A DNA stretch of 64,000 nt from Bacteroidales bacterium (GTDB lineage: Bacteria > Bacteroidota > Bacteroidia > Bacteroidales > Bacteroidaceae). Shown piece by piece: positions 29,429-42,830 of the stretch; position 1 is the stretch's first letter; each line of letters begins with the position of its first letter. The position numbers were made by a program, and so were the translations under genes. The stretch is from positions 7,467 through 71,466 of the forward strand of contig JAQXZK010000137.1 in assembly GCA_029227175.1 (NCBI GenBank), written 5' to 3'. The notes below the pieces were generated by a model, which was given only the letters and a program-made list of their open reading frames with translations, searched no databases and was not told the DNA's origin.

Positions 29429-30145
29429 ATGAAGTTCGCAATAATAGCAGCGGGCGAAGGAAGCCGCCTTTCACAGGAGGGCGTAGAAGTTCCCAAACCC
29501 TTGATCCGCCTCAATGGTGAGGTGATGATAGACCGACTGATTCACATTTTTGAATCATGCGGGGCTACTGAAATAGTGATTATTGTCAATGAATGGAGCA
29601 CACAAGTCCGTCAACATATTGAATCCCTGCGATTAAGTGTCCCATTGCGTCTGGTCGTGAAGACGACTCCCAGTTCCATGCACAGTTTACACGAACTCTC
29701 CCCCTTGCTCAGAGGCGGGAAGTTCTGCCTGACTACGGTAGATACCATCTTCCGCCAGGAGGAGTTCGCCCGCTACATTCAGCACTTTGAATCGGCAGCA
29801 GACGACGTGGACGGCTGTATGGCAGTTACCCCATACGTCGATGACGAGAAACCACTGTGGGTGGCGGCAGACGAGTCGCTGCGCATCACCGGCTTTCACG
29901 ATAAGCAGCAGGAAGGCGATTACTTGGTATCGGGAGGCATTTATTGTCTCAACGACCGTGCGCTTGATGTCCTTGACCATTGCATGGCAGCGGGAATGAG
30001 CCGAATGAGGAATTTTCAGCGACAGCTTGTGGAAGAAGGCCTCAAACTGGAGGCATGGCCCATGCCCAAGATTGTGGATGTGGACCACAAGGATGACATC
30101 CGCAAGGCCGAAGCCTTTCTAAAACCATTGGGGGGGGTAAAGTAG
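29429..30145 (+). CDS. Nucleotidyltransferase, possibly inositol-phosphate cytidylyltransferase-like
   Basis: IIAAGEGSRL..PKPL; TTVD; C-terminal DVDHKDD. Confidence 0.85.
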   Translation: MKFAIIAAGEGSRLSQEGVEVPKPLIRLNGEVMIDRLIHIFESCGATEIVIIVNEWSTQVRQHIESLRLSVPLRLVVKTTPSSMHSLHELSPLLRGGKFCLTTVDTIFRQEEFARYIQHFESAADDVDGCMAVTPYVDDEKPLWVAADESLRITGFHDKQQEGDYLVSGGIYCLNDRALDVLDHCMAAGMSRMRNFQRQLVEEGLKLEAWPMPKIVDVDHKDDIRKAEAFLKPLGGVK

Positions 30146-30204
30146 ACATGGGCTACAAGGAAGACACCAGAAAGGCCGAAGCCTTCCTGAGGCCATTGGA
30201 GGGA
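30074..30204 (+). repeat. Diverged tandem duplication (period 68 bp) spanning a gene junction, with a G8 tract at 30130-30137
   Basis: VDVDHKDDIRKAEAFLKPLGG (from 30074) versus VDMGYKEDTRKAEAFLRPLEG (from 30142). Confidence 0.92.
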
Positions 30205-31047
30205 ACAACATGGATTGGGATAAGCCGGGAAAACCGCTACTCGCCCAACTGCACGCAGAAAGACTCTGCCATCCTGCATCAGACGGCATTACAACTGCAA
30301 AATCTGGGTGCAACGGTACAACTCATGCAGGAGGAAGAGTTCTGCAGAAGTTTCCAAGAGCTTACGTCGGTGGACGGTTGTTTCACCATGGCAAGAAACG
30401 AAAGCACCCTGCAATGCTTGCAGCAGTTGGAAGAACGGGGAGTGACGGTGGTCTATTCCGCCTTCGGAATCCGTCGCTGTGTGCGCAGCACGATGAGCAT
30501 GTTGCTTGAATCTAACGGGATTCCCTATCCAAAAAGCCACCTGATCGAAGCATCCGGGCACATGCCCGAAGACATCGCTTACCCCTGCTGGCTGAAGCGG
30601 GGCGATGGCTGTGCCCAACAGAAGGAAGACACCTGCTACGTGCAGAGTCTGGAGCAGGCAAACGAGGTGTTGCAAGACTTCTGGCGCCGTGGGGTCACCT
30701 CTGTCGTGACGTGTGAGCACATAAAGGGAGACCTTATCAAATTCTACGGTGTACGCGATACGGACTTCTTCTACTGGTTCTACCCATCGGACGTCTTTCA
30801 CTCCAAGTTTGGACTGGAGGTTATCAACGGAGTTCCTAAAGGGCTCCCCTTCAGCGTGGGGCATTTGAAGCAGATCTCAGATGAGGCTGCCCGCGTGCTG
30901 GATGTTCCTGTCTATGGGGGCGATTGCGTGGTGCAAGATGACGGACAAATTCTAATTATCGACTTCAACGACTGGCCAAGCTTTGCGCCCTGCTGCCAGG
31001 ATGCCGCTTACAAGATTGCCGAATTGATTACAAACATATCACAATAA
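30148..31047 (+). CDS. ATP-grasp fold protein of unknown function
   Basis: PCWLKRGDG, EHIKGDLIKFYGV and YGGDCVV..IIDFNDWPSF align with ATP-grasp motifs. Confidence 0.7.
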   Translation: MGYKEDTRKAEAFLRPLEGTTWIGISRENRYSPNCTQKDSAILHQTALQLQNLGATVQLMQEEEFCRSFQELTSVDGCFTMARNESTLQCLQQLEERGVTVVYSAFGIRRCVRSTMSMLLESNGIPYPKSHLIEASGHMPEDIAYPCWLKRGDGCAQQKEDTCYVQSLEQANEVLQDFWRRGVTSVVTCEHIKGDLIKFYGVRDTDFFYWFYPSDVFHSKFGLEVINGVPKGLPFSVGHLKQISDEAARVLDVPVYGGDCVVQDDGQILIIDFNDWPSFAPCCQDAAYKIAELITNISQ

Positions 31048-31053
31048 ACTGCC

Positions 31054-31959
31054 ATGGATGAATTTCAATCTTCCCTTAAATCCACTGATACCGAAGAGAC
31101 CATTGACGTCTATTTCTATCGCCCGATAGGTTATCGCTGGGCTCTGCTCTTTCGCCGCTTGGGTGTGCACCCGAATACGGTGACCATCTTTTCCATTATC
31201 CTGGGCGTATCGGCCGGTATATTATTCTATTTTAATGACATAAAACTGAATCTGGTAGGGATTCTGCTCCTGATGTGGGCCAACATGTACGACAGTGCTG
31301 ACGGACAGTTGGCACGCCTTACGGGACAAAAGACGGCATTGGGGCGAATCCTTGACGGCTTTGCCGGTGATTTGTGGTTCTTCGCTATTTATGTCAGCAT
31401 AGCGCTCCGCTTGACTCCGGAATGGGGAATATGGATTTGGATAACCGTTCTGTTCGACGGTTTTGTCTGTCATGCCCGACAGTGCCAGTTGGCCGATTAT
31501 TATCGGAATATCCACCTCTTCTTTCTCAAGGGAAAGGAGGGAAGCGAGATGGATGACTCGGTGGGTCAACAAGAGAAATACAATAAGCTGGACTGGCGCA
31601 CAGACTTCATTTCTAAGCTGTTTCAGTTCTTTTACGTACGGTATGTACGTGCCCAGGAGGGTATGACCCCAAAGTTCCAGCTCTTCAAAAGGGAAATGCT
31701 CGCCCGATACCCGTCAGCATTGCCTCTCAAGCTGCGCGAGGATTTCCGCGAGGGCAGTCTTCCTTTGATGAAGTATGCCAACTTCCTTACATTCAACTGG
31801 CGTTCTATCCTGCTTGCACTGTCTTTAATCGTAGGAGCTCCATGGATTTACATTGCTGCGGAACTGGTTCTGTTCTCTCTCGTGTTCTTCTATATGAGGG
31901 CCTGTCACGAAGCGTTGTGTGACCGCCTTCTCACCCAATTAGACCAATATGAAAGATAA
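31054..31959 (+). CDS. CDP-alcohol phosphatidyltransferase
   Basis: HPNTVT; DSADGQLARLTGQKTALGRILDGFAGD signature. Confidence 0.93.
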   Translation: MDEFQSSLKSTDTEETIDVYFYRPIGYRWALLFRRLGVHPNTVTIFSIILGVSAGILFYFNDIKLNLVGILLLMWANMYDSADGQLARLTGQKTALGRILDGFAGDLWFFAIYVSIALRLTPEWGIWIWITVLFDGFVCHARQCQLADYYRNIHLFFLKGKEGSEMDDSVGQQEKYNKLDWRTDFISKLFQFFYVRYVRAQEGMTPKFQLFKREMLARYPSALPLKLREDFREGSLPLMKYANFLTFNWRSILLALSLIVGAPWIYIAAELVLFSLVFFYMRACHEALCDRLLTQLDQYER

Positions 31960-32938
31960 ATACCGCAACGGCTTTCTGTTGTTTGGTGTCATAGCCATCG
32001 TAATCATGCTGTGCACCTTCGACATGGATTATACCGACATCTGGCATAGTCTGCGACGGGCCGGTGCCTGGTTCCCGGCCGTGCTGCTGCTGTGGCTGTT
32101 TGTCTACCTCCTGAATACGGCGTCCTGGTATCTGATTATCCATGACGAAGGACATTGCAAAGGACTTGGATTCTGGCGTGTCTTTAAATTGTCTGTCAGT
32201 GGATTTGCCCTCAACTATATGACCCCCTGCGGGTTGATGGGCGGCGAACCGTATCGCATCATGGAACTGACGCCTTATATCGGGGCAAGCAAGGCTACCT
32301 CCTCGGTGATTCTCTATGTCATGATGCACATCTTCTCACACTTCTGGTTCTGGCTTTTCTCGATTCTTCTCTTTATAGTGATTTATCCAGTAAAGCTGCA
32401 AATCGGTATTCTACTTGCGTTGATAACTCTCTTTTGCCTGCTGGCCATTTACTTTTTCGTGCGAGGGTATCGCACCGGAATGGCACTGAAGGCATGTACC
32501 TTACTGACGCATATTCCCGGCATCCGCAAGTGGGCACGGCAGTTTGTGACGGAGAAGGAGAGCTCGTTGCGACAGATTGACGAACAGATTGCCATGCTTC
32601 ATCGCCAGCATCGCCGGACTTTCTACAGTTCCCTGCTGCTGGAGTTCCTGGCTCGTCTGCTCTCCAGCCTGGAGATTTACTTCATTCTCAGAGCCTTCTC
32701 TGCCGGAGTCAGCATTGCAGATTCCGTACTTATTCTGGCTTTCTCGTCGCTCTTCAGCAACATGATTTTCTTCTCTCCAATGCAGTTGGGTGCCCGCGAG
32801 GGCGGGTTGGCCTTAGCCGTGGAGGGACTGAATCTATCCGGAGCATTGGGAGTCTACACGGGACTCATCACCCGTGTGCGTGAACTCTTCTGGGTTGCGG
32901 TTGGTATAATCCTGATACGTTTGGGAAACAGAAAATAA
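31949..32938 (+). CDS. Lysylphosphatidylglycerol-synthase TM-region (flippase-like) protein
   Basis: Multi-TM; NYMTPCGLMGGEPYR; PMQLGAREGG. Confidence 0.85.
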   Translation: MKDKYRNGFLLFGVIAIVIMLCTFDMDYTDIWHSLRRAGAWFPAVLLLWLFVYLLNTASWYLIIHDEGHCKGLGFWRVFKLSVSGFALNYMTPCGLMGGEPYRIMELTPYIGASKATSSVILYVMMHIFSHFWFWLFSILLFIVIYPVKLQIGILLALITLFCLLAIYFFVRGYRTGMALKACTLLTHIPGIRKWARQFVTEKESSLRQIDEQIAMLHRQHRRTFYSSLLLEFLARLLSSLEIYFILRAFSAGVSIADSVLILAFSSLFSNMIFFSPMQLGAREGGLALAVEGLNLSGALGVYTGLITRVRELFWVAVGIILIRLGNRK

Positions 32939-32951
32939 ACTTCAAGGCATT

Positions 32952-33668
32952 ATGGCTATAAAAGGTATTCTTTTTGATTTTGGCGGCACGCTCGACACAA
33001 ACGGCGACCATTGGTCGGAAGTCTTGTGGCGTGGCTATCAGCACTTTGGCATTGCGGTAGAAAAGAAAGACTTCCGGGATGCCTATGTGCATGGTGAACG
33101 TACGCTGGCCACTCACCCGATTGTGACAGCCGATTTCCACTTCGTGGATGTGTTGCGTGCCAAGCTGCGTATTCAGCTGGAATGGCTCTCCGGGCATGGC
33201 TTCCTGCCCGCTCTCGCTACGGACAACGTTGAGACTCTGGCCGATGATATGGCACGCTACGTGGATAGTCTGACGCATGAAACGCTGGCCCACAGCCGCG
33301 AAGTCCTCTCGAGGCTGAAAGCCACCTATCCCTTAGTACTGGTGTCAAATTTCTATGGCAACATACAAACAGTACTGAAAGATGCCGGCTTGGACTCCTG
33401 CTTTAGGCAAGTAATCGAATCGGCGGTGGTTGGGGTCCGCAAGCCCAATCCGGCCATCTTTGCCTTGGGAGTCTGCGCACTCGACCTGCCTGCATCGGAA
33501 GTGCTGGTCGTAGGAGACTCCTATACAAAGGATATTCTCCCTGCTCGCTCCTTGGGTTGCCACACCCTGTGGATTAAGGGACTGCAATGGGAAGACACCC
33601 CGTTTGACGAGACACTAACCGATGGCGTCATCACCCGCCTGGACCATATATTTGACTATCTGAAGTAA
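32952..33668 (+). CDS. HAD-family hydrolase
   Basis: DFGGTLD; LVSNF; RKPNPAIF; VVGDSYTKDI. Confidence 0.92.
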   Translation: MAIKGILFDFGGTLDTNGDHWSEVLWRGYQHFGIAVEKKDFRDAYVHGERTLATHPIVTADFHFVDVLRAKLRIQLEWLSGHGFLPALATDNVETLADDMARYVDSLTHETLAHSREVLSRLKATYPLVLVSNFYGNIQTVLKDAGLDSCFRQVIESAVVGVRKPNPAIFALGVCALDLPASEVLVVGDSYTKDILPARSLGCHTLWIKGLQWEDTPFDETLTDGVITRLDHIFDYLK

Positions 33669-33731: not shown

Positions 33732-34086
33732 GAGTACAGCTGTACTCCACGGAGAGAACTGCAGTCATGGTAAACCCAAATCGGTCATTAGATTTGTGAT
33801 AAAGTAAAAGTTTCTGACATTCCGGAATCCCTTTCAGAAATGGTAAGGTCAAGAGCTATTTTCGACCCGATCGAAAGCATTATTCGACGAGGTCAAAAGC
33901 ATTATTCAATGAGGTCGAATATATGATTCGGTTAGGGTACCTCTACAGGCATGTGTAGCGGGGGTGGAACAAGTTGCAAGCCAAGATGAAAGAATGGTAA
34001 AAATTTCAGACATTCAATGTTTCAAAGAGCTTGCGTATCCCATCGTTCGGATGCCGTTCGAATACCGTTTCAATCCTATTATAACC
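33732..34086. repeat. Mosaic intergenic repeat region (palindrome, 22-bp array, 11-bp array)
   Basis: GAGTACAGCTGTACTC palindrome 33732-47; four 22-bp units 33849-33936; CTACA-N6-TGTAG 33943-58; 11-bp TTnnAA-type units 34043-34086. Confidence 0.75.
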
Positions 34087-38329: not shown

Positions 38330-38967
38330 TTCCCTTTGTTGACATACACACCCATCACATTCCGGAGGGCAACCCGCAACACATTGTCAGTATCGTCTCG
38401 GTTGACCCGGATGCAACACCTTTAAACCCGGAACTCCGTTATAGCATCGGAATTCACCCCTACAACATTGAAAATAAGGATTTTCAGGTTGTCATCTCCG
38501 AGTCCGAGAAAAAGCAAGTCCTGGCCATCGGTGAATGTGGAATAGACCACCGCGTACCTACTCCTATCGATTTGCAGAAAGGCCTGTTCAAAGCCCATGC
38601 CCGGCTTGCAGAGAAAGTGGGCAAACCGCTAATCATTCATCAAGTCCGCTCTCAGGACGAAATTCTTTCCGCTCATTCAGATATTAGACCTGAAGTGCCT
38701 TGGATTATCCACGGATTCAGAGGCAAAAAAGAACAGGCCATGCAGTTCTTGAAAAAGGGATTCTACCTTTCCTTTGGCGAACACTATAACCCAGCATCCC
38801 TGCTTGCCTGCCCACCCTCACATCTCTTTCTTGAAACAGATGACACCGGGACTGACATACGGCACATCTATGAAAATGCCAGCCAAACGCTGTCAATTCC
38901 CTGCGAACAGTTAAAAAAAATCATTCGGGAAAACTATCACAACGTCTTTTTAAGGACAATTTGTTGA
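38326..38967 (+). CDS. tatD: TatD-family hydrolase
   Basis: DIHTH; GIHP; AIGECGID; IIHGF; LETD. Confidence 0.9.
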
Positions 38968-42480: not shown

Positions 42481-42524
42481 CATTAACGTCTCATCCCCCC
42501 CGATAAAGATAATTTTTCAAAACA

Positions 42525-42818: not shown

Positions 42819-42830
42819 TGGGGGGTAAGC

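Follow-up and report, generated by a model that had tools for sequence, protein, structure and literature searches.

How does a gene that encodes two joined domains become two genes, and can a single base join them again? The question is raised by a locus in a 64,000-nucleotide stretch of Bacteroidales DNA, here called the window (contig JAQXZK010000137.1 of assembly GCA_029227175.1, positions 7,467 to 71,466 of the forward strand), which comes from the 2.9-Mb, 92% complete assembly of a pig gut Bacteroides. Two open reading frames (ORFs) lie end to end there, one for a nucleoside triphosphate (NTP) transferase and one for a protein with a predicted ATP-grasp fold, and their boundary consists of a duplicated segment that contains a run of eight guanines (G8). 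The structural and evolutionary account that we favor, and consider probable, is that a fused gene was split by a tandem duplication of its own junction, that the resulting boundary tolerates a change of frame, and that slippage in the G-run is tolerated as a consequence and occasionally fuses the gene again.

The duplication was evident from a repeat search, which found a direct repeat of 62 nucleotides (nt) (30074-30135 and 30142-30203) with 48/62 identical positions (77%) and a start-to-start distance of 68 nt. The unit, 62 to 68 nt long, recurs head to tail with a period of 68 and without a spacer. When the 501-nt region was shuffled 300 times, the best self-match over 62 nt had a mean of 29.9 identities and never exceeded 34, compared with the observed 48. 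Tandem Repeats Finder gave no report at the junction, where there are two copies with 77% identity. These results bear out the proposal, made in an initial annotation of this DNA, that the tail of the NTP-transferase is repeated at the start of the ATP-grasp gene with a period of 68.

The two copies have had different fates. In the window, copy 1 reads VDVDHKDDIRKAEAFLKPLGGVK followed by a stop, and copy 2 reads (VD)MGYKEDTRKAEAFLRPLEGTTWIGISR. Copy 1 keeps DVDH...DIxKAExFL, the motif found at the end of the NTP-transferase in all homologs, whether fused or split. In copy 2, DVDH has become DMGY and DI has become DT, so that residues of the NTP-transferase motif are lost; RKAEAFLRPLEG is kept. 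The position of the downstream start codon is ATG in copy 2 and a Val codon (GTG or GTA) in copy 1 and in the orthologs, which agrees with the earlier suggestion that a GTG-to-ATG change in the second copy created the second start. A palindrome, AAGGC-CGAA-GCCTT, is present in both copies (30101-30114 and 30169-30182) and encodes KAEAF; the inverted repeat reported by the repeat search is therefore incidental.

The fused orthologs L018 and L019 each carry a single copy of the unit, and the corresponding segments of the fused proteins P0002 and P0003 read PKIVDVDHKEDILKAEAFLQPLKGAHWVGISR and PKIVDVDHKEDIAKAEAFLRPLEGKKWIGVCR. Copy 1 is identical to the single-copy orthologs at 46/62 and 51/62 positions, and copy 2 at 40/62 and 46/62. 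No second copy of the motif was found in any other relative examined. Both window copies have an Arg before KAEAFL (I/T-R-KAEAFL) and CCATTG codons, and the orthologs have neither. Since these derived states are common to the two copies only, the duplication arose in this lineage. Import of copy 2 by recombination with a diverged allele was considered and rejected on the same grounds, because both copies carry derived states that the orthologs lack.

The boundaries of the unit suggest how it was duplicated. In the ortholog L019, GTGGAT stands at the start of the unit and again exactly 68 nt downstream, and the window has TGGAT directly behind copy 2, at a distance of 68 nt from the start of that copy. 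A pair of GTGGAT repeats at this spacing predicts an out-of-frame duplication of 68 bp, which is the observed period. The absence of a spacer, the single copy in the orthologs, and the boundary repeat at equal spacing are all as expected for a microhomology-mediated tandem duplication, and slipped mispairing between the short direct repeats is the likely mechanism.

The G-run, a homopolymer of the length expected of a contingency tract (about 7 nt or more) and placed where gain or loss of one nucleotide shifts the reading frame, lies in the junction where the initial annotation had located it (30130-30137). Translation of each tract length also upheld the accompanying claims that nine guanines would fuse the two ORFs and that seven would stop the first one at once. 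With G9, the frame runs through KPLGGGKVDMGYKEDT into one ORF of 539 amino acids (aa), and with G7 the upstream ORF ends immediately, at KPLGG. For both G7 and G10, the first ORF stops at a TAA with the ATG 8 nt downstream; for G8, the stop is a TAG and the ATG lies 2 nt further on. Both domains are encoded in full whatever the length of the tract. As a sequence pattern alone, UUG GGG GGG formally fits X XXY YYZ, the slippery pattern of sites for programmed -1 ribosomal frameshifting. In a structural model of the G9 fusion both domains were confident, and residues 234 to 252 had a predicted local distance difference test score (pLDDT) below 50; on this model, the duplicated residues would form a flexible linker. 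The features of the junction and of the genes downstream are listed in Table 1.

Table 1. Features of the split locus and the genes that follow it, in window positions
Feature	Position	Strand	Description
NTP-transferase ORF (G8 state)	29429-30145	+	238 aa; from ORF list and Pfam; corresponds to N-terminal half of fused orthologs
Junction unit, copy 1	30074-30141	+	Encodes VDVDHKDDIRKAEAFLKPLGG(VK, stop); authentic C-terminal helix of NTP-transferase domain
G8 homopolymer, variable element	30130-30137	+	Natural alleles G7, G8, G9, G10, G6AG, and G8AG
Junction unit, copy 2	30142-30209	+	Encodes (VD)MGYKEDTRKAEAFLRPLEGTT; vestigial N-terminal extension of ATP-grasp protein
TAG stop of NTP-transferase, G8 frame	30143-30145	+	From GTG to GTA at first codon of copy 2
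ATP-grasp-fold ORF	30148-31047	+	299 aa; corresponds to C-terminal half of fused orthologs
ATG start of ATP-grasp ORF	30148-30150	+	From second Val codon (GTG) of VDVDH motif
ATGGAT directly after copy 2	30210-30215	+	(G)TGGAT microhomology that also opens the unit, 68 nt apart
CDP-alcohol phosphatidyltransferase	31054-31959	+	Pfam
LPG_synthase_TM protein	31949-32938	+	Pfam
HAD (haloacid dehalogenase) hydrolase	32952-33668	+	Pfam

The upstream ORF matched NTP_transf_3 (8.6e-12) and NTP_transferase (1.4e-11) in Pfam (PF12804/PF00483) and is a putative inositol-phosphate cytidylyltransferase. The 299-aa ORF had no family match in the Pfam search. Its AlphaFold model, for which 19 homologs were used, had a pLDDT of 89.8 and a predicted template modeling (TM) score of 0.86, and a Foldseek comparison with the PDB returned D-Ala-D-Ala ligase (Ddl), RimK, and LysX/ArgX (E values of 7e-15 to 1e-12, TM scores of 0.6 to 0.71). 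Judged from this model, the protein is a member of the ATP-grasp superfamily at the level of the fold, which justifies the label it had been given before. An identity as an ITPK1-like kinase was not established, as the best structural matches were ligases (Ddl, RimK, LysX); in a sequence profile comparison, matches to inositol-trisphosphate 5/6-kinases (ITPK type) were nonsignificant (E values of 0.3 to 0.6).

To place the split among its relatives, a reference set of 61 related genomes was used, 16 of which have the NTP-transferase/ATP-grasp pair. The pair is an uninterrupted 519-aa ORF in 2 of the 16 and is in the same frame with a single stop in 4; in the others, the halves are in different or overlapping frames. 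The four genomes with one in-frame stop between the halves (L002, L004, L011, and L013; junction near locus positions 1485-1546, 985, and 1470) represent four related species, and, to judge from their sequences, these stop-separated pairs are independent fissions without duplication. In the protein collection, the homolog closest to the 299-aa protein is the split, 299-aa P0001 of the same species (99% identity). It is followed by the fused proteins P0002 (80%, 520 aa) and P0003 (70%, 520 aa) and by about 15 more fused proteins of 513 to 524 aa within P0004 to P0020 (51 to 56%). Stand-alone forms of about 284 aa from Bacteroides, Phocaeicola, and Mediterranea rank below these fused homologs. 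The closest homologs outside the species are thus single fusions, which contradicts the possibility, raised at the outset, that homologs of the two proteins are never fused.

In a maximum likelihood tree of the ATP-grasp domain, the window protein and P0001 together are sister to the fused P0002, then to P0003, and then to 11 further fused proteins, with Shimodaira-Hasegawa-like approximate likelihood ratio test support of 99, 99, and 98. All other split forms make up one separate clade with support of 100. Fused orthologs exist and the split pair nests inside the fused clade, so the split in the window is a secondary fission. Both ORFs are intact in more than 25 contigs at 97 to 99.7% identity, without other frameshifts. 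The initial annotation had spoken of gene fission, and fission stands; the mechanism is now more specific, in that the splitting of the fused ancestor is traced to a tandem duplication of 68 bp.

Whether the tract varies in nature was determined from independent public assemblies of pig and other gut metagenomes, with tract states read from 24 same-species sequences that are 97 to 99.7% identical to the window. A search for contigs that encode the exact 299-aa window protein gave no match, and relatives were taken from 90%-identity clusters. A comparison of the neighboring DUF4271 protein with metagenome contigs gave relatives with at most 33% identity over most of the protein and no same-species contig. 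Six contigs have G7 (L026 to L029, L032, and L033). G8 was read in L017, L035, L036, L038 to L041, L043, and L044, as in the window. In all of these the pair is two ORFs, as it is in L034, which has G10 and ends 6 nt later, and in L045, which has G8AG. The interrupted tract G6AG, in L037 and L042, encodes the same protein as G8. L023, L024, and L025 have G9 and one intact 539-aa ORF. The G9 calls derive from runs SRR17418318 and SRR17418327 and from the reads of SAMEA104467343; runs SRR17418326, ERR2597535, and ERR2597490 yielded G8, SRR17418317 yielded G8AG, and ERR2597532, ERR2597374, and SRR25904988 yielded G7. The clusters also contain the corresponding predicted proteins: P0289 and P0291 of 539 aa, reading ...GGGKVDM(G/A)YK..., P0288 of 236 aa (...KPLGG), P0292 of 237 aa (...KPLGGG), and many of 238 aa. 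A fusion product of about 540 aa had been predicted, and predicted proteins of 539 aa (and 236 aa) are therefore on record in public assemblies. Two concerns about the G8 call, that it was a consensus error or that it was invariant, are both contradicted: G8 occurs in at least 10 independent assemblies, and G7, G9, G10, G6AG, and G8AG all occur within the species. One further protein, P0282 (450 aa, from a 2,526-bp ENA contig), joins the N terminus of a member of the unrelated 119-aa family P0273 to the C terminus of an NTP-transferase via a shared RQLVEEG motif. Its tract is read as G9, and it probably arose as a chimera during assembly.

The tract varies among near-identical strains independently of the flanking haplotype. 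G7, G8, and G6AG were all found on one identical flank haplotype of 1,840 bp, and a flank tree of 17 contigs requires a minimum of five changes in the tract and of two between fused and split. The G-tract was the only site of frameshifting indels in 90.5 kb of same-species alignment. Three contigs, L030, L031, and L034 (from runs SRR13517655, SRR13517644, and SRR18693154), are interrupted at the tract or beside it, two of them ending inside it, possibly reflecting within-sample mixtures.

Together, these results suggest the following course of events. The ancestor had a single gene of about 520 aa in which the NTP-transferase was joined to the ATP-grasp domain via VDVDHKEDIxKAEAFLxPLxGxxW. Slipped mispairing between the (G)TGGAT microhomologies 68 nt apart would have duplicated the junction in tandem. 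Because 68 is 3n + 2, the duplication put the two halves out of frame and so divided the gene. Copy 1 remains in the upstream ORF, which thus has its complete C-terminal helix and then meets a stop; copy 2 remains in the downstream ORF, where a Val GTG became the ATG start and a nearby G-to-A change gave the TAG stop. The NTP-transferase residues in copy 2 (DVDH, DI) decayed afterwards. The tail of copy 1 would then have become a G-run that slips by one nucleotide in either direction, so that G7, G8, and G10 give two ORFs and G9 restores the 539-aa ORF, in which the 23 duplicated residues may serve as a floppy linker. Because the duplication leaves each half complete at every tract length, slippage would be tolerated, and its alleles segregate in the wild. 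What slippage would alter is whether the domains are covalently linked, and probably how the second enzyme is coupled or in what stoichiometry it is made, rather than an on/off state. Of this account, the sequences themselves show the duplication, the fused ancestry, the microhomology, the natural alleles, and the recurrence of these alleles on one haplotype. Slippage is the mechanism we infer for the length changes; the fused and split forms would both be functional, and the polymorphism would be mostly tolerated, not selected.

Several observations weigh against this account or narrow it. The low identity between the copies (77%) implies that the event is old or that copy 2 decayed quickly, and a sister species that carries the duplication was not found. 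The three G9 contigs and one G8 contig make up one clade of the flank tree, so fused and split may be stable lineage alleles rather than the outcome of rapid switching. The tract calls come from assemblies, in which within-sample heterogeneity and homopolymer miscalls at low coverage are possible. The ORFs and the fusion stand as predicted products.

The most serious alternative is that the G-run is an adaptive contingency locus, selected as a stochastic switch, with fused and split forms differing in ATP-grasp dosage or in channeling and thereby tuning inositol-lipid or capsule output. Here, behavior of other homopolymers is informative. Ten more same-species contigs were compared over window positions 30.3 to 50.7 kb (115 kb aligned). 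A coding A8 (38913-38920) was invariant in 10/10 contigs. An intergenic C7 between convergent genes (42495-42501), about 12 kb away, was C8 in six of the seven other contigs and C9 in the seventh, and an intergenic G6 (42820-42825) was G5 in one of six. Since the two intergenic tracts vary, G/C runs are generally unstable in this species where the frame does not matter, and the junction tract behaves like such a frame-indifferent site. The neutral C7, with C7, C8, and C9 among eight sequences, is as polymorphic as the junction tract, which weakens the case for adaptive use. Further, no tract state switches off a domain, leaving no obvious selectable difference; interrupted alleles such as G6AG, "locked" and presumably more stable, occur; and fused alleles are in the minority (about 3 of about 27 contigs read).

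Other evidence favors selection. Reaching G8 from the ancestral GGAGGGAA required several A-to-G changes, and the tract has changed recurrently on one haplotype. Across the genome, G/C runs number 180 at 6 nt, 20 at 7 nt, 13 at 8 nt, 6 at 9 nt, and 2 at 10 nt, so that after a nine-fold drop from 180 to 20, runs of 8 to 10 nt (21 in all) outnumber those of 7 nt (20). SusC-like, Wzc-like, and restriction-type genes are neighbors of several tracts, and in Mycobacterium bovis a change from 7G to 8G that fuses FrdB to FrdC, with a phenotype, offers a precedent (PMC12263978). On balance, we consider an adaptive contingency locus possible but doubtful. An evolved switch of protein architecture and not of expression, in which a stochastic toggle between two consecutive enzymes and one linked bifunctional enzyme alters inositol-lipid or capsule flux, seems slightly less probable again. 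Adaptive phase variation is no more likely than slippage that is simply tolerated.

The long G/C runs of the genome include C16:16228-16235, C119:6146-6154, C42:171-180, C63:2295-2303, and C185:1166-1173. Several lie just upstream of SusC-like receptor ORFs. Among the others are a G10 within the ORF of an SNF2/restriction-type helicase, a C9 that specifies the C-terminal GGG of a kinase resembling Wzc, and a G8 at the junction of a short-chain dehydrogenase/reductase gene and a ketoacyl-ACP synthase III gene (SDR/KAS-III). Together, these runs could represent contingency loci of the homopolymer type in a Bacteroides.

A second alternative concerns the order of events: the duplication could have been in frame at first (69 bp, 23 codons, a harmless linker), with the split following later through loss of one G. 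In its favor, the period in G9 alleles is exactly 69 bp and their 539-aa ORF is intact, and the structural model predicts a disordered linker for the duplicated residues. The microhomologies nevertheless point to an out-of-frame origin, since the GTGGAT repeats in L019 are 68 nt apart, not 69, and the TGGAT after copy 2 is likewise 68 nt from the start of that copy, across a stretch free of the G-run. We therefore regard an in-frame origin as improbable.

It is more improbable still that errors of sequencing or assembly at poly-G account for the differences in tract length, with the true state always G8 and the pair simply split. Poly-G tracts are error-prone, the evidence consists wholly of short-read metagenome assemblies, some of low coverage (e.g., cov 3.7), three contigs end at the tract, and contig L099 differs at two other G/C tracts simultaneously. 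The G7 state, however, is shared by six contigs, one of them 77 kb long, which derive from no fewer than three or four runs and from MEGAHIT-type, SPAdes-type, and Logan assemblies. Pairs that resemble one sample assembled twice agree on the tract, including among the G7 calls (L027/L029, with the same first base, and L032/L033, of near-identical extent). For G9, two runs from the same study agree and have identical haplotypes, and a contig from a different study has G9 as well. G6AG, seen in two samples, is a substitution and not a length error, and the coding A8 does not vary.

That the split pair is ancestral, with the relatives having fused their genes independently and the repeat having nothing to do with the gene boundary, can be rejected with near certainty from the ATP-grasp domain tree: split pairs are commonest in the wider family (98/118 top hits and most reference genomes), but the window pair lies three nodes deep within the fused clade, and joining the window ORFs minus one copy of the unit reproduces the single-unit fused architecture.

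The two ORFs are the first genes of an operon whose gene order is identical in all related contigs. Its gene content in Pfam agrees with the description by Heaver et al. 2022 (PMC9246714) of an "alternative," B. vulgatus-like inositol-lipid cluster, a biochemically unconfirmed pathway of gut Bacteroidetes. As in that cluster, an NTP-transferase, a CDP-alcohol phosphatidyltransferase, an LPG-synthase-like membrane protein, and a HAD hydrolase are found in one operon. The term "ATP-grasp" is absent from the text of that paper, in which neither the ATP-grasp gene nor its fusion to the NTP-transferase is discussed. Unlike the published cluster, the operon in this genome is not adjacent to a gene for myo-inositol-phosphate synthase (MIPS): the sole Inos-1-P_synth match in the genome is on a separate contig outside the window (C30:45140-45499; L046). 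Exceptions in which MIPS is away from the cluster, such as P. copri, were noted by Heaver et al. (PMC9246714). Within the operon, the HAD gene of one strain (contig of L036/L097) is 24 bp shorter through an in-frame deletion at 33362-33385, which reduces the product from 238 aa to 230 aa. At 34043 and 42710, intergenic indels of 22 to 23 bp are polymorphic.

Homopolymer phase variation, gene fission, and homopolymer-driven gene fusion are each known already. The tract resembles the phase-variable homopolymers of Neisseria, Haemophilus, Campylobacter, and the Mycobacterium tuberculosis complex in being a coding G-run of 7 to 10 nt that differs by one nucleotide between very close relatives, shifts the frame, and changes recurrently on one haplotype background. 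It is unlike them in that no tract length silences a gene, because the duplicated junction lets all frames encode both domains; any switch would be between one polypeptide and two. In Bacteroides, phase variation is known mainly by DNA inversion. The closest parallel is M. bovis frd, in which the 7G tract at the boundary of adjacent genes gains one G that removes the stop and gives an in-frame fusion, with both alleles present in natural isolates (PMC12263978). There, the split form is ancestral and the fusion obstructs a quinone-binding pocket (PMC12263978), whereas at the present locus the fused form is ancestral, the split arose by tandem duplication, and the re-fused protein has a duplicated 23-residue linker predicted not to disturb either domain.

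As in known gene fission, a gene that is bifunctional in some species is two adjacent genes in others, and the split is derived. Such events are covered by catalogues of frame transitions such as GeneTack (PMC3711429) and by fusion/fission surveys of multidomain bacterial genes. The fissions of the sampled relatives involve a plain stop or a frameshift with overlapping frames; here, in contrast, the junction was duplicated and neither half lost sequence. A model of duplication plus complementary degeneration has been described for eukaryotic gene fission, and the fission in the window is a small-scale analogue of it. What is new is a fission by duplication of the junction that makes all three frames viable, and the coexistence of ancestral-like fused alleles with split alleles in wild gut Bacteroides populations, in a lipid pathway of current interest.

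For annotation, the locus is a warning, as one G decides whether it is called as two genes, one gene, or a pseudogene. For the biology of these bacteria, it offers an unusually clean sequence-level mechanism of gene fission, with the fused, split, and re-fused states all present in public data, and it indicates how a hypermutable homopolymer at a boundary where every frame is viable can lead to natural polymorphism in protein architecture. The one-base difference between fused and split forms is a natural experiment on the benefit of covalently fusing consecutive enzymes.

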